Positions 111 to 64,000 of a stretch of 64,000 bases of DNA are shown piece after piece. The stretch's first letter is position 1; every line of letters begins with the position of its first letter. Source of the stretch: Escherichia phage ECO71P1; the sequence record OP172789; one strand, 5' to 3'. A program made the translations under genes and the position numbers. The notes beneath the pieces are model-generated. The model was not told the DNA's origin, did no database searches, and worked only from the letters and a program-made list of their open reading frames with translations.

Positions 111-121
111 CGGACCCTTGT

Positions 122-1127: not shown

Positions 1128-1460
1128 TCATTTTACATAGTGGAGTAGGTCAATCTCTATCTCGTGCCTTGTCCTTGTTATCTTTGTATCGCCCGTCCGG
1201 TGGGTGACTTGAGAGAAGAAAGAGTCTTTGTGAGCACATCTTTCAAACATCACGCTGGCAAATCTGCAGCCGCATATTGCATCAAGTTTTGCTCCGTTAG
1301 ACAAAAGGTTGAATGTCAATACAGTGTTATCCATCCTTGCATTTTGCTTGATGCAGGACTTTAAGAAGGCGTAAGAATCGGCAAATGATTTGTGCCTTTT
1401 ACAAATATCTTTAACCTTTTCACGTTCATACGCGGCGAGTATCTGATCACGGGTCATCAC
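1128..1460 (-). CDS. hypothetical protein
   Basis: 110 aa ORF. Confidence 0.45.
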   Translation of the reverse strand: MMTRDQILAAYEREKVKDICKRHKSFADSYAFLKSCIKQNARMDNTVLTFNLLSNGAKLDAICGCRFASVMFERCAHKDSFFSQVTHRTGDTKITRTRHEIEIDLLHYVK

Positions 1461-1696
1461 TGCACCTCTGTTATTCCGGTTATACGAACGATGACTGTGT
1501 CATCCAAATTAAACTGCTGCCGCGCAACGCGCTTGATGTCGTCCTTAAGGTCCGCAATCAACTCCCTTGTTAACACTGTACGCTCTGAGACGCCATATTG
1601 CACGTCAAAGGTATACTCGCCATAAAACACCGCGCCATTGGGAAGTTGCACGACATAGAATGCCATATACATGGCGTTGATATAATCTTCCATTAT
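1457..1696 (-). CDS. hypothetical protein (start trimmed to internal Met MEDYINAM)
   Basis: Longest ORF 1457-1807 overlaps next gene by 115 nt; internal ATG gives 4-nt ATGA overlap. Confidence 0.35.
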   Translation of the reverse strand: MMEDYINAMYMAFYVVQLPNGAVFYGEYTFDVQYGVSERTVLTRELIADLKDDIKRVARQQFNLDDTVIVRITGITEVQ

Positions 1697-2040
1697 ACAT
1701 TCTCCACGGGTCGACGAATGAGTTTGCGTAATCCTTCGGGCCAGACCTTCTTGATGACGGCCTTTGCTGGGCTGGATGAAAGCTTCTTCAGCTTCAATAG
1801 GACACAACCTTCATCATCGTTCGGTTGCACCTGGATAACGACTCGCGCTTGTCGGTCAATGACCATGACATCCCCAACGCGAATGTCTTTCACCAACACG
1901 CCCATCTCCTTCGTGCCGGATACGCCAATCACGTGGTCGCAACGGACTCGCGACGGTAGCAACGTGCCGCCTTCAGCCATCTCACGCACACGCTTCTTAA
2001 TCTCTGCGCCATACAGCGTTTCATCTTTAACATGAGCCAT
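1693..2040 (-). CDS. hypothetical protein (start trimmed to MAHVKDE)
   Basis: Internal ATG preceded by AAGG; avoids overlap with upstream gene. Confidence 0.4.
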   Translation of the reverse strand: MAHVKDETLYGAEIKKRVREMAEGGTLLPSRVRCDHVIGVSGTKEMGVLVKDIRVGDVMVIDRQARVVIQVQPNDDEGCVLLKLKKLSSSPAKAVIKKVWPEGLRKLIRRPVENV

Positions 2041-2521
2041 GTTCAAGTACCTTATAGAATTTAGTGGTGAATCGCTCGTCGCCATAGTAGCGATAATTTC
2101 CGCCACCTGTGTGATCAAACCTTACCCATTGAATTAAAGTCTGGTCAGCGTCATGCGACACGTGAATCACTCGGCCATTAACAGGAATTGCACCCTCTTC
2201 CGCGTCCTTGCTTATGATTGAGTCGCCGTTCTTTATGTCAAATATGTCAATTGGCTTAAGGCGCGGCTTGTTATCAGCATAAGTTTTAATAGGTAAGGCA
2301 ATGCAGCGAGAATTTGAATGATACACAGGTCTTGTTGCACCCTTGACGTTGCGCTTCAGCAATTCATCAATGGCATAGTCAACATCATCACTTTCAAACT
2401 CCTTCATGATGAAGTCTCTTACCCTTACACGAAGGTTGACATCTGCTTCTGCACGTCTCAATGCGTGTAAAATTTCTTTAGCTTCTTCTTTGTTTAACAT
2501 TAAAGGGCGATGAATGATCAT
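2027..2521 (-). CDS. hypothetical protein
   Basis: 164 aa ORF. Confidence 0.45.
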   Translation of the reverse strand: MIIHRPLMLNKEEAKEILHALRRAEADVNLRVRVRDFIMKEFESDDVDYAIDELLKRNVKGATRPVYHSNSRCIALPIKTYADNKPRLKPIDIFDIKNGDSIISKDAEEGAIPVNGRVIHVSHDADQTLIQWVRFDHTGGGNYRYYGDERFTTKFYKVLEHGSC

Positions 2522-2675
2522 AATTAACCTCTGATTTGTGACACAAAACGTTTATAATGTTCTTTGGCTAAGACGCGTGCACGCTCTTTCGTATGGCCAC
2601 TGGCTTCGAGTACGCGACGAAGCTGCTTGATTGCGTCCGCTTTACTAATCTTGTTATCGCTAAATTGATATTTAT

Positions 2676-2897
2676 TCATGCTTCACAAGCCGCCTTAATT
2701 TGACGTGGAGTAACGATGACCACTTCACCAACCAGTGACTTGTCGTCTTCTTTTACCGTGTCGATTCGAACGCGGTAATGATTGCGACCGCGCGAATCAG
2801 TAAGGTATTGATCCAGCTCAAGGATGGTGCCTGCGCGCATATTCTGTCCTGACATCCAACGGATGCGGTCCCCAGCCTTAAGAGTTTTCTTTCTCAT
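2676..2897 (-). CDS. hypothetical small protein (start trimmed to MRKKTLKAGD)
   Basis: Longest ORF would overlap the next gene extensively; internal start fits gene packing. Confidence 0.35.
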   Translation of the reverse strand: MRKKTLKAGDRIRWMSGQNMRAGTILELDQYLTDSRGRNHYRVRIDTVKEDDKSLVGEVVIVTPRQIKAACEA

Positions 2898-2904
2898 CTT
2901 CAAC

Positions 2905-3183
2905 TCACTTATAGTATTTAAACATAGCCGCGCAAAAGTCTTGCATGGCATTCTTAATCTGCTTCTTGAACAACGGGTCATGCATCGTTTCAACATTCGT
3001 CTTAATCCGAACGTGACCGATAACATCAAACGCAGTCGCTGGCATCGGCTCATAGATTTCATGATCGTTCAAGATTATATCTAGTTTTGACTCAGAAATC
3101 ACGGGATAATTCTTTCCAGCAGTAAACTGGTCATCAATCGATGACGTGCACTTGACAAAGAACACTTTGTATGTAGTAATCAT
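2905..3183 (-). CDS. hypothetical protein
   Basis: 92 aa ORF. Confidence 0.4.
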   Translation of the reverse strand: MITTYKVFFVKCTSSIDDQFTAGKNYPVISESKLDIILNDHEIYEPMPATAFDVIGHVRIKTNVETMHDPLFKKQIKNAMQDFCAAMFKYYK

Positions 3184-3389
3184 AGTGAGTCCTTCGGGCC
3201 GCAGTAGCGCCCGTCCAGGTAGCGGTCATATTGGATTAAGGCGAACGTTTTCAACGAAAGGTTACGGCGCTTAAACAGGTGACCCGTTGATGGATTCTGC
3301 TCGTGCGCCGTTGGATAAAGGCGTGACAGGTAGTGGATGAGGACTTGTAAAGCTCTACGTTGCTTTGTTATTCTCCCTTGTGTATTCAT
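3180..3389 (-). CDS. hypothetical protein
   Basis: 69 aa ORF, ATGA overlap with downstream gene. Confidence 0.3.
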   Translation of the reverse strand: MNTQGRITKQRRALQVLIHYLSRLYPTAHEQNPSTGHLFKRRNLSLKTFALIQYDRYLDGRYCGPKDSL

Positions 3390-3618
3390 GGCTGAATCTA
3401 CCCTCTGTCAATATCCGGTCGTGGATGACTATACCAGTGCAGCGCAGTCGGTTGGCATTGCTTCGCGCCTTTGCTGCTTGATGAGGATTGAACAAGCCAA
3501 ACAAACTAGCCTTAAAAGCAAACTGGTAATATTTGATTAAGGTACTAAGTGCTAACTCAATCCTGTCTAAATTAATCATAATATCACCTCGTCAGAAAAG
3601 CAAATATTTTGATGATAA

Positions 3619-4266
3619 TTATCCTGTGGCCTGCATATTGCGTACATACTTCTGCTCTAATGAATAGATGAAGTCGGCGACCGTCAATCCTTTGGTGTGC
3701 CACTCATACATTGTGTAGCCTGTATTCAGGAAATAGCCGCGCACCTTGTCCATTGCTTCAGATTCCTCCATGGAAGCCATCAGCGCGGCGACGTTATCAT
3801 AAGAAGGCACAAATCCCTTCTTGCGTAGCGCATTGCGCAAATCTTTAGTTCTGAATCCAATCTTGCACAGGTCATCACGGCCCGTTGAAGATGCAACCTT
3901 CGGCAGCGCAAGGAACTCTTTGAGGAACATTGAGATGTTCAAGTCGCCTGCGTCATCAAGCTTCTGGAGTCGGTTGCGACCGCGACCCTTGAATTCACTC
4001 GCACGAGGGTGAGCACCAAAGCAGTGCGCCCCTTCCAGTTTTGGGTCGATGATCATCAAATCTTTGCCTACGCGCAATTCAACATAGTAAAGGTATGTCT
4101 CATCGATAAGCTTCGTGCGCTTACAGTTGATGGAGTCCTTATCGTAACCAAAACCACGCAACACGGTTGAAATCATCCGGTTCATTTCTTCTCCGTGAAC
4201 GTCACTCTCTTTGTTCAGTTCACCAAGATGTTGAAAGAATTTAGCGATGTTGATTGCTTTATTCAT
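3619..4266 (-). CDS. hypothetical protein
   Basis: 215 aa ORF immediately upstream of the helicase gene, stop/start adjacent. Confidence 0.5.
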   Translation of the reverse strand: MNKAINIAKFFQHLGELNKESDVHGEEMNRMISTVLRGFGYDKDSINCKRTKLIDETYLYYVELRVGKDLMIIDPKLEGAHCFGAHPRASEFKGRGRNRLQKLDDAGDLNISMFLKEFLALPKVASSTGRDDLCKIGFRTKDLRNALRKKGFVPSYDNVAALMASMEESEAMDKVRGYFLNTGYTMYEWHTKGLTVADFIYSLEQKYVRNMQATG

Positions 4267-5936
4267 CAGAATTCATCCTTATCTCTTCCTAAAGAACGTT
4301 TGCGTTCAATAACCTTCTTCAAGAATTCAATATCTTCAGGGTCAGATTCATCGCGGATAAGATACGCCAAAATAGTCATCAGGTCAGAAATGTATTCCCC
4401 TGCTTCATTCTTAATCAGCGGCGTAAAGTAACCACGCTGGTTGCGATAGGTTGCAGGCTCAAATCCAAGCTTCGACATGTGCGGCGCAAGGGTACGTGAG
4501 AAAGGCGACTTGCCGCACTTAGCTCTGAAGCCCATAGCGATTGCACCACTAGTGATGTGCCAGCGTCCGCTGTGATGTCGGTCATAAGGCGCGGTGATGA
4601 CGACTTCAACAAGGTCGTTGTCGACCATCTCGTCACGGATAACGCCGCGAGCACGTTCCATTTCGTTCTTGCTGAACTCAGTAAGCATGCGAGACGTTTC
4701 ACCAACAAAAGCGTTGTAACCTGCTTCGCCGTGCTTCTCCATCCACGCAGCACACTCAGCCATCAACTGCCAAACATCTTCTTTCAAAGTGGAAAGGTCA
4801 GCTTGGAAGTCTTTCGACCAGTTCGGTTGCCCGTCCTTGTCTGCGAGTTGGCCAACAAAGATAGGATACACACGACGGTTGCCCGTATCGTCACGCTGCA
4901 TGCCTGCGTATTCGTTGCCGTCCATGATAGCAATCCACTGGCGCGGTTTAACCTGCGTATCTTCAAATTTGAAGTCCAGGTCATCTTCCGTCTTAGTCAG
5001 GAATGCTTTCATGTTTTCGATGTCGGCCTTTTTAAAGCCTGTCATCTCGCCAACGTTCGCGATAATTGAGCGACCCGTAATAGCTCGCAAGAACGGGTTG
5101 AAGTTCTGCGCGGCCAAGTTCAACGGAATCGGTGTTGCGTGGCGGTCGTTCATAATAGCTTCGCAAAGCAGCTTACTGAAATAACTCTTCCCTGCGTTCT
5201 GGCCGCCGATGAGCGCAATGGAGATTGGCGCTTGACAGCCAGGGTTGGTCAGGCGGTTATAGAGCGATAGCCAAAAATACACACCGATTTGTCGGTTTAA
5301 CTCTGTATCGAACGGTCGGAATAGCTCGATAAGGTATTTCTCAATGCGCGCAGTACCGTCCCATTCAGGCAGCTTCTTGTAGAAGAAGTCCATCAGGTCG
5401 TCGCGCTGATAACGCATGGCCCATTCCTTATAGGATTGAGCGACCTGACGTGAGTTTGGGTTGGACAGGCCTGCTGCGTCGACAGCGGCAACTATCTCTG
5501 TGACTTCCAACGTCCGGTCGGTGAATGTTTCTCCGCGATGGTCGACTAAGCGTCCACGAAAAGTATCTTTGTGAGGGAATGGGACAATGCCGCTTCCCTT
5601 ATCAAACAACGCGTCGAAAACCGCATAACGGTTCATGTCACTCGTCCGGTCCGCCTGAAGAACAAAATCATCTTTCGTCGGTTTGTAGTGAGGGAACTTG
5701 ATTACCTGAAGTGAGGCGAGCAAACGTGCTCTTTCAACCAAGTCTTCTTCACCGTAGCACTCCATGCGCTCTGCATCTTTCTCAACAGCCTTATGCTGGA
5801 GGCTGATTTTAGCTCTGGTGCCTTGCTGCTCTGCCGCTTGCATCTCTTCTGAAACACCAGCGTCTTGAATTTCGTCAAAGGTTGCACCAAATTCATCACC
5901 TGTATCCTCTGGAAGATTGTCATGTTCAATTGACAT
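4266..5936 (-). CDS. P-loop NTPase, putative replicative helicase (D5 / primase-C-terminal-like)
   Basis: Walker A-like IALIGGQNAGKSYFSKLL in 556 aa protein; strong AGGAGG RBS before ATG at 5936. Confidence 0.55.
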   Translation of the reverse strand: MSIEHDNLPEDTGDEFGATFDEIQDAGVSEEMQAAEQQGTRAKISLQHKAVEKDAERMECYGEEDLVERARLLASLQVIKFPHYKPTKDDFVLQADRTSDMNRYAVFDALFDKGSGIVPFPHKDTFRGRLVDHRGETFTDRTLEVTEIVAAVDAAGLSNPNSRQVAQSYKEWAMRYQRDDLMDFFYKKLPEWDGTARIEKYLIELFRPFDTELNRQIGVYFWLSLYNRLTNPGCQAPISIALIGGQNAGKSYFSKLLCEAIMNDRHATPIPLNLAAQNFNPFLRAITGRSIIANVGEMTGFKKADIENMKAFLTKTEDDLDFKFEDTQVKPRQWIAIMDGNEYAGMQRDDTGNRRVYPIFVGQLADKDGQPNWSKDFQADLSTLKEDVWQLMAECAAWMEKHGEAGYNAFVGETSRMLTEFSKNEMERARGVIRDEMVDNDLVEVVITAPYDRHHSGRWHITSGAIAMGFRAKCGKSPFSRTLAPHMSKLGFEPATYRNQRGYFTPLIKNEAGEYISDLMTILAYLIRDESDPEDIEFLKKVIERKRSLGRDKDEF

Positions 5937-6002
5937 TTAATCCTCCTGATACGGCTTTGTTATATTGTTGCATGGATATATCCTTTCAGGGTGCGGTAAA
6001 TA

Positions 6003-6022
6003 AACGCCAGAAATCTGGCGTT
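6003..6022 (-). terminator. putative rho-independent terminator for the minus-strand unit
   Basis: Hairpin AACGCCAGAAATCTGGCGTT; T-rich run follows on minus strand. Confidence 0.4.
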
Positions 6023-6072
6023 GTATATTAATATAGTAAAACTCAGTTTAAAGCAATATAACTGGTGAACTA

Positions 6073-6363
6073 TCAGCAAGGAAATTGGTCAGCGTATGCC
6101 TTTCTCAATTTGTTTACTGACTGAACAGAATGAAGGTATTGGCAATCGGTGAAGATGCGGCGCAAACAATCCATAGAAGACAGGTCATCGTTAGTAACCA
6201 CCAGAATCTCTTCCGAAGGGCAACCAGCTTCTTTGGCAATCTCATTAAGATTTGAGCCATTAATTTCTTCAACACGTTTCACCTCATCGATACCGTAAAC
6301 ATCAACGGCAACTTCGATGTCGTCATCGCTGATATTCTCACCATAAAGAATTACAATATTCAT
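6073..6363 (-). CDS. hypothetical acidic protein
   Basis: 96 aa ORF. Confidence 0.45.
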   Translation of the reverse strand: MNIVILYGENISDDDIEVAVDVYGIDEVKRVEEINGSNLNEIAKEAGCPSEEILVVTNDDLSSMDCLRRIFTDCQYLHSVQSVNKLRKAYADQFPC

Positions 6364-6464
6364 TTACTCACCCCTGCCAAATAATATGCCATATCCAATA
6401 CATATAATAGCCCCAGGATGATAACAAGGGAAATGATTAATGTGTATTTCTTTACGGCTTTCAT
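6360..6464 (-). CDS. small hydrophobic protein (about 34 aa, one predicted TM helix)
   Basis: Hand translation MKAVKKYTLIISLVIILGLLYVLDMAYYLAGVSK; stop overlaps next start (ATGA); below ORF-track size cut-off. Confidence 0.3.
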   Translation of the reverse strand: MKAVKKYTLIISLVIILGLLYVLDMAYYLAGVSK

Positions 6465-6482
6465 ATGTATCTATACCTAAAT

Positions 6483-6746
6483 TTACTGTTGAGGATCACC
6501 GATGGAGCCTGTCGCATCCCATTCAACGCGTGCTGAACGGTCTGCTGGTGGACAACCTTCTCCGGCGTAAAGCTCCACCACGCCTTCGTGAGAGCAGCAC
6601 TGGCACTCTACAAGGTCGCCGTCCTCCCAGGCACCTTCCTCTGCATTGCGATGCTGCCGCACCTTGATCACATCGCTTGCACAGTTAGGACAAGTCGAAA
6701 GACTGCTTGTGACGTTCCAAACAAACTCGTTGCGGAAAGCACCCAT
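6483..6746 (-). CDS. hypothetical protein with zinc-ribbon-like Cys pairs (CPNC...CQCC)
   Basis: Start trimmed to MGAFRNEF to abut upstream gene. Confidence 0.4.
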   Translation of the reverse strand: MGAFRNEFVWNVTSSLSTCPNCASDVIKVRQHRNAEEGAWEDGDLVECQCCSHEGVVELYAGEGCPPADRSARVEWDATGSIGDPQQ

Positions 6747-6747
6747 G

Positions 6748-7038
6748 CTACACCTCTTGATCTCGCTGTTGTTGAATCGCGGCTGCAGCTTCTTCAAAAT
6801 TCACTGGCTCAACGGTAAACGTTGCACTGACAGTGAAGTTGTTAATCGTCAGCAAAGTATTGAAACGCTCTGCATTCAGATTCATCGCCACGTGAGTCGA
6901 AACATTAAGGATTGCGCCAACAACTTCTTCAACCGCATAGCCTTTAAACAGAGGAAGAATTTCATTGACAAGCTTCAGCTCGTTCTCCACGCGAAGTTTT
7001 TGCGCTTCTTCAGTGGTCATCATTTTTGGTTCGTTCAT
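6748..7038 (-). CDS. hypothetical protein
   Basis: 96 aa ORF. Confidence 0.45.
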   Translation of the reverse strand: MNEPKMMTTEEAQKLRVENELKLVNEILPLFKGYAVEEVVGAILNVSTHVAMNLNAERFNTLLTINNFTVSATFTVEPVNFEEAAAAIQQQRDQEV

Positions 7039-7040
7039 TT

Positions 7041-7187
7041 TTATTCCTTAACAAATTCAGAGTAGTGTTTGGCCGCAGCCGATTGGTGGTGAGCCATAAC
7101 ACCTTCAAGGGTGGGAAGCTCTACGTGCTTAGGTTCTGACGAATTTAACAGACCTTCAAGCTCGATGTTCAATTCTTCGCTTTGCAT
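7041..7187 (-). CDS. small hypothetical protein (48 aa)
   Basis: Hand translation MQSEELNIELEGLL...; GAGGTG RBS before ATG; below ORF-track cut-off. Confidence 0.35.
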   Translation of the reverse strand: MQSEELNIELEGLLNSSEPKHVELPTLEGVMAHHQSAAAKHYSEFVKE

Positions 7188-7245
7188 AAATCACCTCTGC
7201 TTCAGTTCATAAAATGATTATAGTTGCTAGAAAAATAAAAGCAAA

Positions 7246-8328
7246 CTATTTTATGCCACCTGCGCGACGATTTATCATATCAAGTTGATTCTCAATATAA
7301 GGCATTACTACTGCTTCGACAAAAGCGGTCCATCCTTTCTTGCCTTCCCCTTTCCGGTGACAGTCGTGAGCGCAACCGAAAACGAATTCATGTTCAGCGC
7401 CAGGGATTGGGCCGCGAAAATAAGCGCCGTATGGGTCGCCGTTGGTGTGCTCTTCACCCCAAGGACAGATGATGCGGCATTTACCTGACATGTTTTCAAC
7501 CACATCGCCATCGGACCCTTCGCCCATCTTATTGCGCGCAAGGATTTGCTGGGCTATCTTATACCAAACAGCGTCATATTTGTATTCGTCAACGTCGATT
7601 TGAATTTCACGCTTTTGCGGCATAACGACGTGGAAACCGAAGGCTTGGCAAATCTCTTCGATTGTGTAGCGCAAAGAATAGTCTGCATGAACAAGTCGGC
7701 AGCGGAACGGGTCGCCGTTCTCATCGACATATTTATAGGGGCCGTCGTGAGTCACACGCTTATTGTTGATGCACCCAGGAACACGACCCACGCGTGTCAC
7801 ATCTTTAATCGTATTGTCGCCGCCCTTCTTGAGTACCATGTTTACGAAAGACCCAAGGAATGCTTTGAACTGAATAAGATGGTCAATCGGTTCTTTAAAG
7901 AAGTACCACAGCTGATGGTTGTTCGGTGAAGTCTCAACAATGACGGTGGGCTTCAGGCGCTCGAAAAAGAATTCCAAATCTAAATCGCCCTTTGACCCTT
8001 TACCGTGTCCGATGTCGTCGACCATCATCGCCATGCCATGACCGAAAGCCGATTCCGTGCGCCAGTATCGCATCTCGCCTGTCTTTGGGTTGGGAGACTT
8101 ACGCATTGAACTTATGCAGGCGTAACCGTTCTGATGTTGCATCAGCGGCTTGCCAAGCTTCCAAGGCTTAGGCCAGAAGCTGCTGTTAATCTTTTTGCCG
8201 CGCTCGTCGGTCTGCACCGTTGCTTCAGGCGCAAACACTGTCATGACGCGTTCATCTTCTGGAATGCCTCTTTGGAGTTCCGTCAAAAACTCTTCGATTA
8301 TTTTTGCTTCTTCTCTTAAACTAGCCAT
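7246..8328 (-). CDS. putative primase-like replication protein (AEP/prim-pol-like DxD motif plus C-terminal Cys/His cluster)
   Basis: MMVDDIGHG acidic motif, C-terminal CPWGEEH...GCAHDCH; GAAGGAAAG RBS; sits beside helicase gene. Confidence 0.4.
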   Translation of the reverse strand: MASLREEAKIIEEFLTELQRGIPEDERVMTVFAPEATVQTDERGKKINSSFWPKPWKLGKPLMQHQNGYACISSMRKSPNPKTGEMRYWRTESAFGHGMAMMVDDIGHGKGSKGDLDLEFFFERLKPTVIVETSPNNHQLWYFFKEPIDHLIQFKAFLGSFVNMVLKKGGDNTIKDVTRVGRVPGCINNKRVTHDGPYKYVDENGDPFRCRLVHADYSLRYTIEEICQAFGFHVVMPQKREIQIDVDEYKYDAVWYKIAQQILARNKMGEGSDGDVVENMSGKCRIICPWGEEHTNGDPYGAYFRGPIPGAEHEFVFGCAHDCHRKGEGKKGWTAFVEAVVMPYIENQLDMINRRAGGIK

Positions 8329-8488
8329 CTTTCTTTCCTTCGGTGATCAATACCTGCAGTATAATATTGAGTGATACAAAGTCAACAATATTTACCATTT
8401 AGTTCACAATTTCGATTTACTTTGCTTTATACTATATCTGCAATTATACTATCAGAAAATATTTCCGCACTAACAAAGGTCGCCTGAA
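8329..8488. promoter_or_regulatory. divergent intergenic region with three TGC-N-TATA(A/C)TAT boxes, candidate host-RNAP promoters
   Basis: Switch point between minus-strand and plus-strand gene blocks; repeated -10-like hexamers. Confidence 0.3.
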
Positions 8489-8815
8489 ATGAACGAAAAA
8501 GATACGAAGCAACGAGAACGTGCAACACACGTCGGCATCGTTGAGTCCTTCCTTAATACAAGACTGAATTCAAGTCTTACAATTATGCGATTCCTGGGTC
8601 AACCAGACAGAATCAAATTCATCTTTGCCGCAAATCCGGTATCGCTTTACATCCCTGTTGAATCCATGGCGTACCTGGTGCGCGACGAGCAAGGGTGGAA
8701 GATACCAAACACGACTGTTTTCTTCAGTCACGTTGACGGTGAGATGTTTGAACGAAAAGAAGATTGCCATTTTATTCCAGTATATCTGGACCTTGAAAGC
8801 GTAGTGGAGTTATAA
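8489..8815 (+). CDS. hypothetical protein
   Basis: 108 aa ORF, first gene of plus-strand block. Confidence 0.45.
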   Translation: MNEKDTKQRERATHVGIVESFLNTRLNSSLTIMRFLGQPDRIKFIFAANPVSLYIPVESMAYLVRDEQGWKIPNTTVFFSHVDGEMFERKEDCHFIPVYLDLESVVEL

Positions 8816-9999
8816 TGAACATTCCAGAATTTAATAATGAGCCAGTGATTCAGTTCAACGCGCAACAGATTGATGCCATCGAAAAGGCCGTTGCATGGTA
8901 CAAGCGATTGCAGGACGGTAAAACGACGAAGCGCGTGTTTTTCATCGCTGGCTATGCAGGAACAGGTAAAACCTCTATTGCGCGTGAGATTGTGCGCCGT
9001 TGTGTCGGTGAGTACGGTGCCATTTATATTGCGCCGACCGGAAAGGCAGCCAGCCGATTGAAGCAGAAAGGGTGTCGTGGCGCGAAGACACTTCACCAGT
9101 TCATCTATAACGTGCGCGGCGTAAATGACGACAATGAGCCAATATTTTCGAGAAAGTCAAAGCTGGACGAAAAGCCGCATCTTGTAGTCCTTGATGAAGC
9201 TTCAATGGTTGGCGAGTGGGATACAGAGCGCCTTCTTGATCACCGCATCCCTGTGCTGGCATTAGGCGACATTGGACAAGTCCCTCCGGTAAAAGCCGCC
9301 GCCTACTTTACTGAAGATGCCGTTGACGTACTGTTAACCGAAATCATGCGGCAAGGGAAAGAGTCCAACATAATCCGCGCTTCCTTCTTCGTGCGACAGG
9401 GCAACCGACTTCCTCCGCGTGAATACGATGACGTCAAGGTGTTGGCTGAATCGCCGCGCGTTACCGCACTGAAGAAATTCATGGGCGAAGATGATCAGAT
9501 TATTTGTTCATATAACAGCACCAAAGATAAATGGAATTCATTATTGCGGCAAGTGAGCGGACGTATAACGCCAATGCCAGGAATCGGTGAGAAAGTTATT
9601 TGCACATTCAACCAACACGGTCCAGGATTCTGTAATGGCGAGCAAGGGATTGTTATTAGTTATGAGCCAGTACCGGACTTTGAAAGGGATGAAGATGAGT
9701 CCAATGAAATAATGTATGTAAATTTGCGCTCGCTTACCGATGGCAAAGATATAAAGGTCAAGATAAATCCTCTTTCCTTCTCTACTGATCAGGAAGTGCG
9801 CAAAGAGGCTCAACGCGCTGTTGGAGGAATGGACTATGGCTATGTCATAACGGTGCACAAATCGCAAGGCAGCGAGTGGGATAATGTGTGCGTTCTGGAA
9901 GAAATCTTGCGCGGCGTTCCGTATGCCAAGATGATGTACACAGCCATCACCCGTGCTAAGAAGAATCTGACTGTGTACCGTGATTTGAAAGCGCGTTAA
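8815..9999 (+). CDS. Dda/RecD-like superfamily 1 DNA helicase
   Basis: Walker A GYAGTGKTS, Walker B VLDEASMV, C-terminal YVITVHKSQGSEWD motif. Confidence 0.75.
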   Translation: MNIPEFNNEPVIQFNAQQIDAIEKAVAWYKRLQDGKTTKRVFFIAGYAGTGKTSIAREIVRRCVGEYGAIYIAPTGKAASRLKQKGCRGAKTLHQFIYNVRGVNDDNEPIFSRKSKLDEKPHLVVLDEASMVGEWDTERLLDHRIPVLALGDIGQVPPVKAAAYFTEDAVDVLLTEIMRQGKESNIIRASFFVRQGNRLPPREYDDVKVLAESPRVTALKKFMGEDDQIICSYNSTKDKWNSLLRQVSGRITPMPGIGEKVICTFNQHGPGFCNGEQGIVISYEPVPDFERDEDESNEIMYVNLRSLTDGKDIKVKINPLSFSTDQEVRKEAQRAVGGMDYGYVITVHKSQGSEWDNVCVLEEILRGVPYAKMMYTAITRAKKNLTVYRDLKAR

Positions 10000-10152
10000 T
10001 GTTGACGTAAATTTACGAAAAATAAAACTGAAAATCAGTTTAATTAAAGTGGCATTGCCGCCAGAGTTTTTAGTTGCTACTGGCGGCGACTGAAGGCATA
10101 ATTAAGTTATCCCAAACGGGGAATATAAAATAAACTAATTTATTTAAGGACT

Positions 10153-10998
10153 GTGAATATGGCCGAAGCAATCAAAGTATTATCTAAAGAAGAAAAACAA
10201 GCAGCTGCAGCAGAACGTCGTCGCGTGGCTGAAGAAAAACGCCTGGCTAAAAAGAAAGAAGCCGAAGAAAAACGCCAGAAGCGTGAGCAGGAAAAACAAG
10301 CCAAGCGTGAAGAAGCTGCACTGAAACGCAAGCAGGCCGCTGATGAGAAAGCACAGAAACGTGCTGAAGAAGCAGCGAAGAAAGCCAAAGAGCGTGCAGA
10401 AAAAGCTGCTGCTAAGAAAGCAGAGCGTGAAGCCGCTAAAGCAGCAAAAGAAATCGAAAAGGCAAAGGCTAAAGAAGAAGCCAAGCGCCTGAAAGCTGAA
10501 CAAGCTGCTGCTAAGAAAGCAGAGCGTGATCAAGCCCGTGCTGCAGCGAAGGCCGAAAAAGAGAAGGCCAAAGAAGAAGCTAAAGCGAAACGCAAGGCAG
10601 AGCGTGAAGCTGCTAAGATTGCGGCTAAAGAAGCTGCAGAAAAGCAGAAAGAACAGCGTAAGAAAGAAGCTGAAGAACGTCGCAAAGCCATCGCAGAACG
10701 TAAGGCTGCTAAAAAGGCAAACGGTCAGCGTCGTGCAAAAGCAACCCACTTCATCTACACTGGCAATGGCCTGAGCCAGCCGCAAGAGCATTCCACCCGT
10801 GGACGCGTTCTGGCGGCGATCAAAGAAGGCGAAGTTGGCGTGGCGCAGTCTATCGATGAGCTGGGCGAAAAAGTTAAAGATCAACTGTTTGGCGCTTCCG
10901 TTCGCTCCTACCTGAGCAAGCTGGAAGAGATGGGCCACATCGAGTTTGTCGATGTTGAATCCAACGAAGATGCCGAAGACGGTGATCAAGCGGAATAA
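10153..10998 (+). CDS. Lys/Ala/Glu-rich charged repeat protein with C-terminal globular domain
   Basis: About 180 aa of KAE low-complexity repeats (AAKKAERE-type), then about 90 aa non-repetitive tail; AAGGA RBS. Confidence 0.6.
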   Translation: MNMAEAIKVLSKEEKQAAAAERRRVAEEKRLAKKKEAEEKRQKREQEKQAKREEAALKRKQAADEKAQKRAEEAAKKAKERAEKAAAKKAEREAAKAAKEIEKAKAKEEAKRLKAEQAAAKKAERDQARAAAKAEKEKAKEEAKAKRKAEREAAKIAAKEAAEKQKEQRKKEAEERRKAIAERKAAKKANGQRRAKATHFIYTGNGLSQPQEHSTRGRVLAAIKEGEVGVAQSIDELGEKVKDQLFGASVRSYLSKLEEMGHIEFVDVESNEDAEDGDQAE

Positions 10999-58848: not shown

Positions 58849-59244
58849 ATGATCATCGATATTGAAAAGGCACTCAAGCGAGAATTGACGCCAGGTGCGA
58901 CTCCTGGCGAAGAAGCCTACTACCGACCGAAAGCGCAGCGCACCAATGAGATTCCGGTCGTTAAGCGGACAGTGAATAAGAACGGTCAGCGGTCGCGACT
59001 GCGCTCTATCCGGTCCGGTGAAAGGATTAAAACGATTCGCCAGTGTCTACAACGACTCGAAATCATGGGTTGTCGCGCTTATATCGACCCTGATGGAAAG
59101 GTCATGGTGAGAATTGGCAATAGTACACAACTACAAGACGGATTGCCTTGCGGAGAATCCAGACCCATAGCAAAGACCGACCGTGTGGCTACTGGCCGCG
59201 AGGTTGAGGAAAGTTGGTTGGGTGCTTTCTTATTAAAATATTGA
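58849..59244 (+). CDS. hypothetical basic protein (start trimmed to MIIDIEKAL)
   Basis: Longest ORF has implausible Cys-rich N-terminal extension. Confidence 0.35.
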   Translation: MIIDIEKALKRELTPGATPGEEAYYRPKAQRTNEIPVVKRTVNKNGQRSRLRSIRSGERIKTIRQCLQRLEIMGCRAYIDPDGKVMVRIGNSTQLQDGLPCGESRPIAKTDRVATGREVEESWLGAFLLKY

Positions 59245-59251
59245 GGTTAAT

Positions 59252-59446
59252 ATGAATAAAAATGAATCAGTAGCATTCTTACAATGGCTGGAAGGTGTGG
59301 TGGAGTATCGCGCGGCAAGCGACCGTTTCATCTTTCAAGGCAAAAGCTTCAAGCGCAAAGGACAAGCCCAGAAAGCAGCCCGTAAATACTGGAAGGAAGT
59401 TTATTCAGAGTTCTTTCAGCACATCGGCTCAGTTGGTATCGATTGA
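59252..59446 (+). CDS. hypothetical protein
   Basis: 64 aa; GAGG RBS. Confidence 0.4.
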   Translation: MNKNESVAFLQWLEGVVEYRAASDRFIFQGKSFKRKGQAQKAARKYWKEVYSEFFQHIGSVGID

Positions 59447-59483
59447 TGAATCCAATCGTTACAATTAACAAACCGATTTGAAT

Positions 59484-59505
59484 GCCGCGCTATGCGGCTT
59501 TATTA
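59484..59505 (+). terminator. putative terminator
   Basis: GCCGCGCTATGCGGC hairpin followed by TTTATTAT. Confidence 0.45.
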
Positions 59506-59543
59506 TAGTTATTGTTAATCACCCAAATATTGAAGGTAATGAT

Positions 59544-59957
59544 ATGCCAAATAAAAATGATTCTATTCACAATACATATACTAAAGGCAGCGGAATGGCC
59601 TTTGGTGGCAGCATCAAAATTGACGCTCCTGGGATTCACATCCATAATGTTGATGCAAGTTCTGATGTAAGCAGTCGTGATTTGTCCTTGGTCCTCAAGA
59701 ATCAACTCGCTTTGGAATCGCGGTTGGATAGCATCGAGAAATCTCTCGAAAGTCTGCGCGACCAGCTTTATGGGCCTTGCCCCGTTGCGGATGAGTCTAA
59801 GACTGTTAATGTCAACTACGGTCTGATTGACAATATGCTTGGTGCTACATCACGCTCTGCCGTTAAGGCGTATAACATCGAGAATCTGATTGGGCAGATT
59901 TCTGATGGATTTGGCACATCTTGTGTTGCAGGTCGTGAAAGCGATTGTGGTGAGTAG
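59544..59957 (+). CDS. hypothetical protein (start trimmed to MPNKNDS)
   Basis: GAAGG RBS before internal ATG. Confidence 0.4.
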   Translation: MPNKNDSIHNTYTKGSGMAFGGSIKIDAPGIHIHNVDASSDVSSRDLSLVLKNQLALESRLDSIEKSLESLRDQLYGPCPVADESKTVNVNYGLIDNMLGATSRSAVKAYNIENLIGQISDGFGTSCVAGRESDCGE

Positions 59958-59988
59958 ATTTGATCGTTAGTCTTGGATAGTGAATCGT

Positions 59989-60015
59989 GGGTCGCTGTTG
60001 GCGGCCCTTTCTTTT
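59989..60015 (+). terminator. rho-independent terminator closing the plus-strand late unit
   Basis: GGGTCGC-TGTTG-GCGGCCC stem (one G-U pair) followed by TTTCTTTT. Confidence 0.5.
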
Positions 60016-60605
60016 GCCTGCCGCGCAGGAGTGTACTGAAAATTTACTGTGGGTACAAAATAGTACGGTACTGTCTGGGACTTTTTCTTTGAAAAGTTAG
60101 TGGACCAAATGTGTCGTATTTTGATTAGTGTACTGCAAATTTCATCAAGTACCAAAACGCACCAAAAGACCCATGCCCTAAAAACCACACGAACGCAATA
60201 ATCAATCGCCGTTACAGTTTCCAGCGTTACAATTCGAAAGAGAATGATTCGACGCATAATAACATGAAGCATAATGATTCAAAAGCGAATGATTGCGTGT
60301 AGGATAATATCGGTGGGGATTATTCTAGATGTCGGTAATTTCGCATGCGTACTATTTTCGGGCGAAGGGTCGGCATATTTCTCGTTTTAGTTCGGAACGA
60401 AGGGAAAGTTTTGCGCCTTTATAAAACAACGACTTACGCGACCCTCCCTAACGGTCCGATATAGGTGTCTATATAAAACAACGACTTACGCGATGTTCTC
60501 CATTTAACGTAATACCTGTTATGCGAACTAAGGCGCATCTAGACGAAGATTATGCGACGACGAAGGGAAGGATAAAGGAGTTTTCTCGTAGGAGCGCATC
60601 GAGAT

Positions 60606-60637
60606 AGGGACGAAGAAAAGCCGCGACTAAGCGCGGC
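60606..60637 (-). terminator. rho-independent terminator downstream of the 60658-60948 gene
   Basis: GCCGCG-ACTAA-GCGCGGC hairpin; TTTTCTT follows on minus strand. Confidence 0.5.
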
Positions 60638-60657
60638 CTATTAGTAACGGAAGGGTA

Positions 60658-60948
60658 TTATAAGGAGGCGATTTTAAAATAAGTTACTTCGCCGCCGAGT
60701 TGCGGTACAGCGATATATTCGCCGCCGATTTCGGTAATCGTATAGACGAAGCCGTTAATCGTTACGCGGTAGGATACTACGTCCTCGTCGCGATACTTGT
60801 AAAGGTCGAGGAAGTTGATCGGTTCATAAATAGACTCGATAGTTGCGTCTACGTTAGAGAGATAAACGCTCTCTAAAGTCTCGCCAAATACGTTAGAGTT
60901 TTCGGAAGTCTCGACGCGAGCGGAACGGATAGCGGCTAAAGTAATCAT
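60658..60948 (-). CDS. small acidic protein, island paralogue 1
   Basis: 96 aa; paralogous to 61758-62042 product; AGGAG RBS; CG-rich codon usage. Confidence 0.5.
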   Translation of the reverse strand: MITLAAIRSARVETSENSNVFGETLESVYLSNVDATIESIYEPINFLDLYKYRDEDVVSYRVTINGFVYTITEIGGEYIAVPQLGGEVTYFKIASL

Positions 60949-61054
60949 AATATTCTCCTAGTTAGTCGGGAGGGTAGCGACCTATTCGCTACCTCACCCC
61001 TCTCGATATAAATAAGTATAATCTTAGTGTACGGATAAGTAAAGCACTTTTTTT
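60949..61054 (-). promoter_or_regulatory. promoter-leader cassette copy 1 (TTTACT / TATACT sigma70-like boxes, leader stem-loop, anti-SD CTCCC)
   Basis: Aligns with copies at 61537-61618 and 61654-61757. Confidence 0.5.
60973..60993 (-). ncRNA. 5' leader stem-loop (transcript GGTAGCG-AATAGGT-CGCTACC)
   Basis: Covaries with 61713-61733 stem while loop AATAGGT is conserved. Confidence 0.45.
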
Positions 61055-61063
61055 CGTTTTTTT

Positions 61064-61216
61064 CTATTTATTTAAAGCGCGTCTTCCAAGTTCGACGACC
61101 CAAGCGGCGGCATCTTCCGCCTTATTAAATTCGTATAGATGCTTCTTATCTTCGAAGACGTAAAATAAAATACGTCCGAACTTATTAGCCTTCGCGCTTA
61201 ACTCGATAGTTTTCAT
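61064..61216 (-). CDS. small hypothetical protein (50 aa)
   Basis: Hand translation MKTIELSAKANKFGRILFYVFEDKKHLYEFNKAEDAAAWVVELGRRALNK; AAGGAG RBS. Confidence 0.3.
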   Translation of the reverse strand: MKTIELSAKANKFGRILFYVFEDKKHLYEFNKAEDAAAWVVELGRRALNK

Positions 61217-61233
61217 CTTCTACTCCTTTTTCG

Positions 61234-61536
61234 TTATTTTGCGATAAAATATTTATAAGCCTTATCGCCTTCTACGTCGATATACTCGACGATAATTAAC
61301 GCTTCGCCGCGCGGCGTAACCGACTCGATAAGGGTAACGGCTTCGTCGTCGGTCTTCGCGAAGCGGATGGCGCTACGTTCGGCGTACTTTATATCGTCGA
61401 AGGATAATCCGACGAAGGCGACGGCGCGCGCTTTAATAATTCCCTTTTCGAGTTCCGCGTTAACGGCGGCGATAAGAGAGCGAACGGTTAAGCGGTCTTC
61501 GTCGTAAGTAAGAATAGAAGAAATTAAAGTAGCCAT
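61234..61536 (-). CDS. small acidic hypothetical protein
   Basis: 100 aa; AGGAG RBS; leader shares cassette with the paralogue genes. Confidence 0.45.
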   Translation of the reverse strand: MATLISSILTYDEDRLTVRSLIAAVNAELEKGIIKARAVAFVGLSFDDIKYAERSAIRFAKTDDEAVTLIESVTPRGEALIIVEYIDVEGDKAYKYFIAK

Positions 61537-61618
61537 AATAAAACTCCTAATGCTAGTAAGGGAGAACGCCTCCCGTCTCGATATAAATAAGTATACGCGA
61601 GTGTACGAAGAAGTAAAG
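61537..61618 (-). promoter_or_regulatory. promoter-leader cassette copy 2 (drives the 61234-61536 gene)
   Basis: Imperfect inverted repeat with copy 3 around a 35-bp spacer. Confidence 0.45.
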
Positions 61619-61653
61619 AAAAAAGATAAAATAATTTATCGCATTTTTATCGA

Positions 61654-61757
61654 AAAAGTGCTTTACTTTTTTCTACACTATATTATAATGTACTCATATC
61701 GGGACGGGATGAGTTAACGAATAGGTCGTTAACGCCTCTCCCAACTAGGAGTTTAAA
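61654..61757 (+). promoter_or_regulatory. promoter-leader cassette copy 3 (TTTACT-N17-TATTATAAT, leader stem-loop, anti-SD, AGGAG)
   Basis: Strong -10 at 61681-61689; hairpin 61713-61733; SD 61747-61751. Confidence 0.5.
61713..61733 (+). ncRNA. 5' leader stem-loop (GTTAACG-AATAGGT-CGTTAAC)
   Basis: Compensatory stem changes relative to the 60973-60993 hairpin. Confidence 0.45.
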
Positions 61758-62042
61758 ATGGCTATTCTTAACGTTTCTTCTATCCGTAACGCTATCGTCG
61801 AGAACTACGGCGTAAAACAAAATTTATCCGAAGTCTACGCCGCGAACGTAGACCAAACTATCGAAGCGGGTGGGGTAACGGTCGCCGAGGCTTTTAAACT
61901 TTACGCGGCGTTACCGGAATCGGACCGCGAAGCCTTCGAAGTAAACGTTAACGGATACTTCTTCGAAGCGGTCGAAATCGGTAATATTTTACTCGTTATG
62001 GGCGAAGAAGAATTTGAGACCTTCTCCCTCGTCGAAGCGTAA
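61758..62042 (+). CDS. small acidic protein, island paralogue 2
   Basis: 94 aa; shared MxxLxxxSIRxAxVExxxxxxxLxxVYxxNVDxTIE pattern with paralogue 1. Confidence 0.5.
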   Translation: MAILNVSSIRNAIVENYGVKQNLSEVYAANVDQTIEAGGVTVAEAFKLYAALPESDREAFEVNVNGYFFEAVEIGNILLVMGEEEFETFSLVEA

Positions 62043-62122
62043 GAGAGGATTTTTAGAGCGTCGTGCGCGGCGCTTTAATAAAATTCTTTCGCGCCTAGCG
62101 CCCTAACAAATAGGAGTTTATT

Positions 62123-62749
62123 ATGGTTAGCTTAAATCGCTTCTCGACTAGCGGCGACGTTATCGCAACTAAGACCGCCGACCTCGTTGCATTCTATAAT
62201 GCAAATTCCGGCTCAAAACCGATTAAGAAGTTTGCGGACCGCCGGACCGCCGAGACTCGCGTAATCGCGTTAATCGAGTCCTTAAACGCGCTCGATGAGC
62301 CGTCCAACGAATCGCCCATCCCCGACGCGAAGCCGCGCGAGGAAGTGCCCAGCGATGTAAAAACGCATAAGGCGCGTGCGGTCGTTAAAAAGGCCGAGCC
62401 GACTCAGGAAGAACTCGACGCGATGACCGACGAAGAGTATGAAGCCTTCGTTAAAAGCGGCCTAAACGATAGTGCAAATTGCGTAGTGCAAAATGGAACT
62501 CCTTCTCATCGCCGTTCGAATAGCGAAGGTATTGCAAAAAGTTGGGATAACAAGGAAGTAGCGCAAAAGCGTCTCACCCGTAACGCCGTTATGGTCGAGG
62601 GTGTAGGAGAGTTCAAATCGGTCCGCGTAGCGTTCGCCGCGCTGGGCTTACCGGATAGCAAGCACATTCGCTTCCGTATGAAGCTCAAGGAAGCTGGGCG
62701 CTTGAACTTTGAGTTCGGCAACAAGTCCTACACCTTCCAGATCATCTAA
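62123..62749 (+). CDS. hypothetical protein (contains two in-frame copies of the TAGTGCAAA repeat)
   Basis: 208 aa; AGGAG RBS; CG-rich codon usage. Confidence 0.45.
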   Translation: MVSLNRFSTSGDVIATKTADLVAFYNANSGSKPIKKFADRRTAETRVIALIESLNALDEPSNESPIPDAKPREEVPSDVKTHKARAVVKKAEPTQEELDAMTDEEYEAFVKSGLNDSANCVVQNGTPSHRRSNSEGIAKSWDNKEVAQKRLTRNAVMVEGVGEFKSVRVAFAALGLPDSKHIRFRMKLKEAGRLNFEFGNKSYTFQII

Positions 62750-62755
62750 TCGAAT

Positions 62756-62778
62756 GGCGGCCCTTCGGGGTCGCTTTT
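62756..62778 (+). terminator. rho-independent terminator with UUCG tetraloop
   Basis: GCGGCCC-TTCG-GGGTCGC followed by TTTTC. Confidence 0.55.
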
Positions 62779-62799
62779 CATAGTGCAAATTGGTGGCTT

Positions 62800-63063
62800 A
62801 TGAATACGCTTATTCTCATCGCTACGTTGTCCATCGGAAGTGGTCGCACCTTATCCCTTTATGATCATAGTGCAAATTGCGCTTACCCAACGCGAGTTGC
62901 GGCGATAGTTAATAGTGCAAATCGAATGCTATTCGAGACTTGTTGGCGGGTTGATAACGAGAAAGGGCGCATCGTCTTAGGTTATAGTGCAAATCTGCTG
63001 GTGGAGTCGTTCGACTGGACGGCGGAAGGTCGTAAATTGTTACGTAAAGTGACTAAAAGATGA
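62800..63063 (+). CDS. questionable ORF spanning three repeat copies
   Basis: 87 aa ORF whose SAN tripeptides are encoded by the repeat; may be non-coding. Confidence 0.2.
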   Translation: MNTLILIATLSIGSGRTLSLYDHSANCAYPTRVAAIVNSANRMLFETCWRVDNEKGRIVLGYSANLLVESFDWTAEGRKLLRKVTKR

Positions 63064-63124
63064 CTTATAATAATACACTTTCTAACGCGTTTATGGTTGT
63101 AACCTTCCCCGTCGTATTACCGAT

Positions 63125-63165
63125 GGCCCTAGAAGTGGAGAAAATGTGTTCTAGGGCCGTTTTAT
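63125..63165. terminator. hairpin between converging transcription units
   Basis: GGCCCTAG ... CTAGGGCC 8-bp perfect stem, followed by GTTTTA. Confidence 0.4.
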
Positions 63166-63177
63166 AGTGCAAATTGG

Positions 63178-63650
63178 CTAGTGGCGGGAGAATTGCTCAC
63201 CCTCTTTGGCAGCCTCTCCAAAATCCTTGTAGAAATCGTCCATGGAACGGCCCATTTTACTATTGCCGTTTTCATCAATCATCGTGATGCCGTAGATGAT
63301 ATTCAGTTCACGAATGGCATTAAGCTTGGCTGAAGCCGCGACTTCTGGATCACGCACAAGCTTCACTAAATTGTGGATGGAACTCTTTACGCTCCACAAT
63401 TCCTTCAATGGCATCTCTTCCATACGCTTCTTGTAGCGCATCTTGTAGTACGGATTGCGTTGCGTGCACAGGATTCGCTGGCCAGTGTAGTTATCGGTCG
63501 CAACCTCCATGCCAAATACTAGTGCAAAAGCTGCGCGCATGTCATGGCCCTGAATAACAAGGTCAATGAACTCATCGAATAATGCCTGATTATGCTCTGC
63601 AAATCGTGGGTCTTCAAAGTCTTCAGGCATTGCTACATAATCTTGACTCA
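63178..63650 (-). CDS. hypothetical protein (start set to MSQDYVAMPEDF; start codon lies inside a repeat copy)
   Basis: ORF track extends via TTG through the repeat array; ATG start favoured. Confidence 0.4.
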
Positions 63651-64000
63651 TAGTGCAAATCCCATAGTGCAAATTAATAGTGTGAATTATACAATGATTG
63701 AACATTATATTCAAGTGCAGATTGATGTTCAAATTGGCTGTAAACGTACACAAATCATAGTGCTAAATGAATATCGGACCGTGGTGCGTGGTGTACTGTT
63801 TGATACGTATAAAAGAAATCCATCCCTTTCGCCGCTTGTTATGCAAATCAATGACTTAGCCGCTGCTGGCTGGTTGAAGCGTATCATGACGTATCATCCG
63901 TATTGCCGCAAGTCTTTGTTTTTACTTATATCTTACGGATAATACGTATAAATATAAGTTTAGTATAAGTATGAGGATGTAGAAAAAATTAATTTAAATT

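Follow-up and report, generated by a model that had tools for sequence, protein, structure and literature searches.

In Escherichia coli the highly expressed ompA mRNA carries a stable, 5'-proximal hairpin in its 5' untranslated region (UTR), which is followed by an unstructured Shine-Dalgarno (SD) sequence; the class III transcripts of phage T7 (gene 10 leader) are organised in the same way, and the stem sequence of such stabilisers is free to vary. The early region of T7 (A1-A3, R0.3, ocr) has strong host-type promoters near the genome end. Its first small acidic early gene, 0.3, whose product Ocr acts in anti-restriction, is separated from the promoter by a hairpin (R0.3). The nutL/nutR boxB hairpins of lambda and putL/putR of HK022 are paralogous RNA hairpins located past divergent early promoters, with compensating differences in their stems, and the first-step-transfer region of T5 lies in a long direct terminal repeat (DTR), its early genes being served by strong sigma-70 promoters. 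Here we analyse a 64,000-nt stretch of Escherichia phage ECO71P1 (sequence record OP172789), referred to as the window, in which three genes, termed A, B and C, are each preceded by a promoter-leader cassette that shares features with each of these systems.

The cassettes resemble the ompA and gene 10 leaders in having a hairpin close to the predicted 5' end, an open SD behind it and stems of variable sequence. Unlike in those stabilisers, the loop is invariant between paralogous copies, and the predicted unpaired tail of 3-6 nt may be too long. As in the T7 early region, host-type promoters lie near the genome end and a hairpin stands between promoter and first small acidic early gene; the phages of the same genus, Wifcevirus, are likewise reported to be resistant, in their case to every tested restriction system but EcoP1 (PMC11990801). 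Unlike in T7, there are three promoter copies in a divergent arrangement, the helix does not reach the length of the T7 RNase III sites, and the proteins have no similarity to Ocr. As in T5, early genes with strong sigma-70 promoters appear to lie within a DTR. No relative of the cassette was found outside Wifcevirus, and it would seem to be a genus-specific phage early promoter with a structured leader.

Promoters and origin of the cassettes

The 2.4 kb around the cassettes is 90-96% identical to 28 GenBank phage records (phage BLAST, near and distant). All of these belong to Wifcevirus, a genus of E. coli and Shigella myoviruses with genomes of 66-72 kb, of which the window is a member. In phage Mansfield the homologous stretch lies inside the DTR (1-3673 of the record, as predicted by PhageTerm), and judging by homology the three-cassette region is part of the DTR of the window phage. 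All genes of this stretch are labelled hypothetical in the Mansfield and WFC annotations, and a literature search found no transcription study or transcriptome for any Wifcevirus.

An initial annotation of this DNA had reported homologous cassettes upstream of the three genes. The coordinates of the genes and their open reading frames (ORFs) were confirmed, and alignment of the upstream regions gave a mean column identity of 71%. For comparison across isolates we assembled the window and 36 related genomes and contigs (GenBank, IMG/VR, metagenomes), 37 in total, which contain 11 distinct A, 10 distinct C and 14 distinct B leaders; orthologues are 90-96% identical and about eight distinct apical stems occur in the sample. 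The cassette was also searched for in phage genomes, and its matches were confined to Wifcevirus: near and distant phage BLAST returned only the 28 records mentioned above, pattern scans of IMG/VR and of metagenomes gave Wifcevirus-like contigs only, plus chance matches in GC-rich coding sequence, and viral contigs with distant homologues of the 208-aa gene downstream of gene C carry neither the cassette nor the CA/TG exclusion zone described below.

All three cassettes have TTTACT and TATAAT or TATACT separated by 16 or 17 bp, in agreement with the hexamers and spacing of sigma-70 promoters, including A2 and T6 of the -10 element. The pattern TTTACT-N16-18-TATAMT occurs at five sites in the window against 0.05 expected, three of the five being the cassettes, and the cassette promoters were also listed by a sigma-70 scan. 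As first described, the -10 element is followed in every cassette by TATCGAGA or TATCGGGA; the sequence continues as (A)TATCGRGA, and the A located 6-7 nt past the -10 is the predicted transcription start, from the -10 distance only. In A and C of all genomes GAAAAA(A)GTG directly precedes CTTTACT, where B has a T-tract, and the A-tract GAAAAAGTG that adjoins the -35 in A and C resembles, as a sequence match only, the proximal UP subsite (AAAAAARNR). The AGGAG, which had been placed about 7 nt before the ATG, was located 6, 7 and 6 nt upstream of it in A, B and C. It is most likely that the cassettes are strong host sigma-70 early promoters. The remaining two TTTACT sites (25326 and 58490) lie downstream of terminators and have short unstructured leaders, and the hairpin discussed below is therefore a property of the cassettes and not of the promoter type.

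We propose that a single early expression unit, specific to Wifcevirus and located in the DTR, is present here in three copies, and that in it an early promoter for host RNA polymerase is joined to a cis-acting structured 5' UTR that would stabilise or insulate the mRNA, and we give this proposal about an even chance of being correct. It is the most economical one, since the three cassettes of all isolates share a strong sigma-70 promoter, the conserved beginning of the transcript, a hairpin near the 5' end whose sequence varies, and an accessible SD. Transcription would begin at the A of AUAUCGRGA, placing the hairpin 3-6 nt from the 5' end and an unpaired AGGAG 6-7 nt upstream of the AUG. 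The hairpin may then act in cis as a 5'-proximal structural cap that slows 5'-end-dependent decay, and by tying up the G-rich 5' end it would keep the SD open; small acidic early proteins would as a result be made at once and at a high level. The loop CGAAUAGGUCG, invariant in A and C, suggests that a factor may additionally recognise these two cassettes; cassette B has a generic small hairpin only.

The alignments show that cassettes A and C arose together with their genes by inverted duplication (repeats I1, I2 and I4). Genes A and C are paralogous, with 32% amino-acid identity; gene B is not their paralogue. Between the coding sequences of A and C, DNA identity has fallen to 62%, a noise-level value given the 58 +/- 3% of shuffles, whereas the 108-nt cassettes are 77% identical, with long identical blocks in the UP/-35 region, TATCG, CGAATAGGTCG and AACTAGGAG. 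The cassette is therefore under far stronger constraint than its proteins. Cassette C stands upstream of an unrelated 104-aa gene in WFC, WFH, Bas98 and Bas101, and directly upstream of the 208-aa gene in ECML-117, RCIP0319, Ro157lw and Eco4M-7. In cassette A of the window the -10/discriminator (61009-61020) reads TATACTTATTTA, a B-type sequence, in place of TATAATGTTTTA, the common form; phage kaset is alike in this respect, and the pattern indicates recombination between cassettes.

Table 1. Positions of the cassettes, genes and neighbouring elements in the window; starts, helices and free energies (dG) are predictions (pI, isoelectric point)
Feature	Position	Strand	Remarks
Cassette A promoter	61009..61056	-	UP-like A-tract CGAAAAAAAGTGC; 17-bp spacer with GTACAC; discriminator TATTTA
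Cassette A hexamers	-35 TTTACT 61038-61043; -10 TATACT 61015-61020	-	predicted start A61009
Leader A	60949..61008	-	UAUCGAGA at 61001-61008; spacer GACUAACU; SD AGGAG 60955-60959
Hairpin A, two-tier	core 60968-61000	-	GGGG/CUCCC basal helix; UGA internal loop; dG -20.7 kcal/mol
Hairpin A, apical helix		-	GGUAGCGA/UCGCUACC; loop AUAGG
Cassette B promoter	61584..61640	-	T-rich upstream region; 16-bp spacer with GTACAC
Cassette B hexamers	-35 TTTACT 61612-61617; -10 TATACT 61590-61595	-	predicted start A61584
Leader B	61537..61583	-	UAUCGAGA at 61576-61583; SD AGGAG 61544-61548
Hairpin B, short	61560-61574	-	GGGAG-GCGUU-CUCCC
Cassette C promoter	61645..61696	+	divergent from B; CGAAAAAGTGC; 16-bp spacer with CTACAC
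Cassette C hexamers	-35 TTTACT 61662-61667; -10 TATAAT 61684-61689	+	predicted start A61696
Leader C	61697..61757	+	UAUCGGGA; AACU; SD AGGAG 61747-61751
Hairpin C, two-tier	61701-61742	+	GGGA.GGG / CCU.CUCCC basal helix; dG -17.1 kcal/mol
Hairpin C, apical helix		+	GUUAACGA/UCGUUAAC; loop AUAGG
Gene A	60658..60948	-	96 aa; pI 4.2; orphan; paralogue of gene C
Gene B	61234..61536	-	100 aa; pI 4.8; orphan
Gene C	61758..62042	+	94 aa; pI 4.05; orphan
s50, extra 50-aa ORF between gene B and cassette A	61064..61216	-	only in window, AV128 and RCIP0363
208-aa gene	62123..62749	+	phrog_4730; second gene of rightward unit
Intrinsic terminator of leftward unit (genes B, s50, A)	60618..60639	-	annotated in Mansfield and WFC
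Terminator-like hairpin after 208-aa gene	about 62757-62779	+	terminator annotated in WFC
CA/TG exclusion zone	60346..62300, fading to about 63000	both	holds all three cassettes and their genes

The leader hairpins

The stems reported earlier, GGTAGCG/CGCTACC in A (60973-60993) and GTTAACG/CGTTAAC in C (61713-61733) around a common loop AATAGGT, are exactly as described, and with the closing A-U pair added each stem has 8 bp with the pentaloop AUAGG. That the leaders would fold into hairpins also held true, but their stability is only modestly unusual, with z-scores of -2.3 (A), -1.5 (C) and -0.2 (B) versus dinucleotide shuffles. We folded 18 of the 21 A and C leaders, the three omitted C leaders differing from the folded ones solely between SD and AUG, and all 18 take the same two-tier fold (dG -16 to -23 kcal/mol, SD free), in which the 8-bp apical helix on AUAGG is followed by an internal loop or bulge and a G:C basal helix of 3-7 bp. 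RNAalifold, applied to each type (A; C), returned the identical two-tier structure. The joint MAFFT alignment of A and C places the gap in the 3' arm wrongly; the apical stem was scored on an ungapped sub-alignment, and whole leaders per type.

The claim that the stem changes compensate each other was borne out. Of the 16 stem positions, 4 are not the same in A and C, and all 4 belong to two compensated pairs (G-C to U-A and G-C to A-U), an outcome for which four random substitutions over 16 stem positions would have a probability of about 0.002 by our own estimate. Standard pairs occupy 96% of the cells of the apical stem in the A/C sub-alignment. The covariation is also statistically supported, with a score of 0.32 against 0.16 +/- 0.04 in shuffles, only 1 of 500 of which reached 0.32, and the apical-stem structure collapses when the partner columns are slid out of register. 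EC150 has a further U-A to A-U swap in the stem, plus a one-base bulge, and three single stem changes (ECML-117 type, Eco4M-7 and Bas99) are G.U on the mRNA-sense strand. These results show, as far as comparison of sequences can, that the 40-nt A/C hairpin is real and that its pairing is kept by selection.

It could be argued that the repeats matter as DNA. They would then be cruciform or hairpin palindromes, or a protein operator at +10 to +45, kept or made symmetrical by template-switch (quasi-palindrome) mutation, within a surplus of palindromes throughout the zone, and not by selection on RNA. Template switching copies a change between hairpin arms in one step. The exclusion zone holds six perfect inverted repeats of at least 7 bp, as compared to 1.6 +/- 1.3 in dinucleotide-preserving shuffles, among them one in each of the paralogous coding sequences at about the same position (60854-60876; 61833-61853); the exclusion of CA/TG is moreover strand-symmetric, indicating a constraint on double-stranded DNA. 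We nevertheless give this explanation a slim chance. A and C have different arms around an invariant, non-palindromic spacer, which is the reverse of what a dimeric DNA operator, with its conserved half-sites and variable spacer, would predict. In addition, three of the five single-arm variants (Bas98, Bas99, kaset, ECML-117 and Eco4M-7) are G.U on the sense strand and A.C on the other, the imperfect, bulged basal helix would be fine in RNA and poor for a cruciform, and the element, whichever its orientation, lies precisely within the 5' UTR. An RNA structure is therefore favoured over a DNA one, because of the sense-strand wobbles, the bulged basal helix and the 5' UTR position in both orientations.

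The loop brings a different possibility into view. The block CGAAUAGGUCG, 11 nt comprising the loop and its closing pairs, is the same in A and C throughout the 37 genomes and contigs, whereas the differences between the stems are compensated; it is present in exactly two copies in the window, matches with two mismatches being at chance level, and cassette B is without it. An invariant loop on compensating stems is the classic signature of coat-protein or boxB-type operators. The A/C hairpin might thus be an operator, as the initial annotation had also considered, for a trans-acting protein that reads the invariant AAUAGGU loop irrespective of the sequence of its stem; either a phage early/middle shut-off factor or a host RNA-binding protein might do so, and it would control translation or decay of A and C, not of B. 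We put this forward tentatively and think it rather unlikely. No candidate RNA-binding protein was found, the neighbours having no Pfam/PHROG function or structural match; neither the SD nor the AUG is within the hairpin; loop invariance is weak evidence at an orthologue identity of 90-96%; and recombination between cassettes clearly occurs, as in the -10 region of cassette A of the window. The operator model is kept alive by the invariant 11-nt block, which a pure stabiliser leaves unaccounted for.

Processing or control of elongation would be another role for the hairpin, either as an RNase III site of the T7 early type or as a put/nut-like element for read-through past the terminator of the 208-aa gene. 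No terminator was found between gene B, s50 and cassette A, so that promoter B transcripts should read through hairpin A, which could also act internally in them. The rightward unit has further same-strand ORFs beyond its terminator, and paralogous elements with compensatory stems past divergent early promoters recall HK022 putL/putR. We consider such a role very improbable. The 11-15 bp stacked here (8 bp apical and 3-7 bp basal) fall short of canonical RNase III sites with their roughly two helical turns; in those of the T7 type, coaxial double-stranded RNA extends over about 20 bp and is interrupted by an internal loop. Unlike in nut, with boxA and a 5-bp boxB, or put, with two stem-loops of about 70 nt, the leaders contain a single AUAGG hairpin with no CGCUCUUUA-like boxA, no GNRA-like pentaloop and no second stem-loop, and the leftward unit has nothing beyond its terminator to read into. 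A scan of 59000-64000 with the Rfam 15 covariance models gave no match, only two sub-threshold chance hits outside the cassettes. The hairpin was also considered as a terminator, which was ruled out as there is no U-run after it on either strand.

The cis-acting stabilising leader, which we prefer, has points against it as well. The predicted 5' end carries 3-6 unpaired nt, depending on the A used and on the outer A-U/G-C pairs (5-6 with a start at A61009 or A61696). Emory, Bouvet and Belasco reportedly found in 1992 that stabilising 5' stem-loops tolerate about 2-4 unpaired nt. To this and to the unexplained loop block must be added the uncompensated mismatches in two variants, Bas98 (C.A) and kaset (A.A), the leader of the latter looking like a recombinant; the low diversity of the sample, in which covariation is based on few events (two pairs in the A/C split and one in EC150); and the zone-wide surplus of perfect short inverted repeats (6 against 1.6 expected), a DNA-level palindrome-generating process being one that may contribute to the hairpins.

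All B leaders retain some small 5' hairpin despite their differing sequences. Of the 37 genomes and contigs, only the window has the hairpin GGGAG-GCGUU-CUCCC with the SD AUUAGGAG, and the B leaders of its relatives have GGGC-GAUG-GCCC or GAGAGGC-GAUGG-GCCUCUU with the SD AUCGGGAG.

As a separate observation, the 5' arm and loop of hairpin C, GUUAACGAAUAG (61713-61724), are complementary to codons 2-6 of gene C, GCUAUUCUUAAC (61761-61773). This pairing of 11 bp with one bulge is preferred by RNAfold in a 95-nt context, and the different first gene of WFC opens with a similar GCUAUCGUUACC.

The CTCCC box and the Shine-Dalgarno sequence

According to the initial annotation, every cassette has a CTCCC box that is complementary to the GGAG of the SD and could sequester it. 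The box is indeed present in the three cassettes of the window, but in B it is window-specific, the other 36 genomes and contigs carrying GGCCCTTCC or GGGCCTCTTC. The predicted folds show the CUCCC box as the 3' strand of the basal helix of the hairpin, with 5' GGGG or GGGA as its partner. Sequestration found no support in the minimum-free-energy folds of the leaders alone, which leave the SD unpaired in 18 of 18 A/C variants, and the CUCC:GGAG mini-helix would contribute no more than -2.3 to -3.4 kcal/mol, or -0.7 in the CGCCC variant. The complementarity is not conserved either: 9 A copies have CGCC and 4 C copies CGUCGAGA in place of CUCC, and none of these shows a change in the SD. The CGCCC change falls on the bulged U of the hairpin, and the CGUCGAGA-type C leaders (TH35-type), which retain no CUCC, form a rebuilt basal helix, GACGGG/CCCGUC, closed by UC/GA pairs.

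The regulatory model built on this box is that CUCC(C) acts as an anti-SD which pairs with GGAG and throttles translation, and that the upstream hairpin competes with this pairing so as to form a switch. The CUCC is located 6-9 nt upstream of the GGAG to which it is complementary, a second C-box, CCCGCCCUCCC, in EC150 and contig L019 leaves it free, and when 30 nt of coding sequence are added to the folds the ensemble probability of CUCC:GGAG becomes 0.42 (A), 0.70 (C) and 0.98 (EC150 A). However, the SD finds partners in these extended folds in box-less variants also, so the prediction is not discriminating; CUCCC is lacking in most B leaders, the losses in A and C are met by no compensating change in the SD, and the upstream hairpin would presumably fold first during transcription. 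Since the box is not conserved and the extended-fold pairing does not discriminate, the anti-SD pairing is at best marginal in these models. A minor effect is still conceivable, and the switch as proposed seems to us improbable.

The CA/TG exclusion zone and the terminal repeat

The three cassettes and their genes lie in a zone of unusual composition. Between 60346 and 62300, CA and TG occupy 58 of 1954 dinucleotide positions (3.0%), compared to 14.7% in the first 59.8 kb of the window (binomial P about 4e-68), and runs free of both extend up to 166 nt. The observed/expected ratio is 0.30 for CA and TG (1.19 elsewhere), 2.15 for CG (1.08) and 1.23 for TA (0.65), with the other twelve dinucleotides unchanged. 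CTAG and TCGAG are each about ninefold enriched, TCGA, CGCG and TTAA are enriched too, and a deficit is seen for AGCT, CATG, TGCA, GATC and GGCC. On the sense strand of every gene the depletion of CA equals that of TG, which argues for a constraint on double-stranded DNA. In the 303 nt of gene B there are two CA and a single TG, which belongs to the start codon. His, Cys and Trp are absent from proteins A, B and C, and Gln and Met nearly so, as would be expected from so strong a constraint.

The zone was seen in all Wifcevirus loci examined (for example 2800-4700 in L001 and in L002, and 3300-5000 in L016). It starts near the inner DTR boundary, about 30 bp inside it in Mansfield coordinates and about 180 bp when mapped onto the window, and fades within the 208-aa gene. 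Non-homologous genes are also spanned, such as the 104-aa gene of WFC (0.23) and the inserted 50-aa ORF, and the composition is normal in the distant homologues of the 208-aa gene that other viral contigs carry; the signature therefore goes with position and is not passed on with the genes. Our literature search for a comparable zone in phages found nothing relevant. The T5 first-step-transfer region was considered as a precedent and ruled out: unlike the Wifcevirus zone, the T5 terminal repeat has no CA/TG exclusion (0.8-1.08), only raised CpG. Over most of the length of that repeat (1-10219) CpG observed/expected is 1.3-1.5, versus 0.5-0.9 over the neighbouring 20 kb; the composition moves the same way as in the Wifcevirus zone, but less far and with CA/TG retained. 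T5 pre-early DNA is not known to carry EcoRI sites, and we know of no two-step DNA entry in Wifcevirus.

It is tempting to view the zone as a Wifcevirus-specific 2-kb module at the inner end of the DTR, which would be the first DNA to be exposed and expressed and whose composition would hide it from host DNA targeting. A strand-symmetric constraint would remove CA/TG and favour CG, TA and short palindromes, the orphan proteins would give resistance to restriction except by EcoP1, whose site AGACC contains no CA/TG, and the invariant-loop hairpins would be operators that time shut-off. We regard this scenario as distinctly unlikely. The DTR segment 59800-64000 has 0 EcoRI, 0 EcoRV, 0 EcoKI and 0 Dcm sites and 8 EcoP1 sites (4 AGACC and 4 GGTCT), a suggestive lead in that the pattern parallels the reported resistance (PMC11990801), although only about 1 EcoRI and 0.5 EcoRV sites are expected and the pattern is not statistically strong.

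The downstream proteins had no function assigned by Pfam/PHROG. A search of 5.8 billion proteins gave near-identical orthologues only, and an exhaustive profile search returned orthologues and low-complexity-like partial matches to long proteins only. AlphaFold gave a confident model for one of five proteins, which had no match in the PDB.

Other features were noted in the same segment. The perfect hairpins within genes A and C measure 7-8 bp, lie at about nt 73-96 of the coding sequence and differ in sequence. A 25-nt direct repeat, CTWTATAAAACAACGACTTACGCGA, is located at 60417-60441 and 60469-60493, 52 nt apart, in non-coding DNA beyond the gene A terminator. At 62466-63769, near the genome end and the small-terminase gene, ATAGTGCAAAT(T) occurs eight times on the same strand; these copies could be candidate binding sites for a terminase, packaging or replication protein, and several of them are inside an annotated 87-aa ORF (62800-63063) which may not be a gene.

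The cassettes provide the first candidate early promoters and the first conserved cis-RNA element for Wifcevirus, a genus of interest for its reported infection cycle of 3-5 min and its restriction immunity (PMC11990801). The value of the cassette itself is modest: it would be a compact, portable unit of promoter, insulating leader and SD, which drives at least three unrelated first genes across isolates. The zone in which it lies would matter more if it is adaptive: a single early module would then be camouflaged at the level of its dinucleotides, which would offer a direct handle on restriction evasion.

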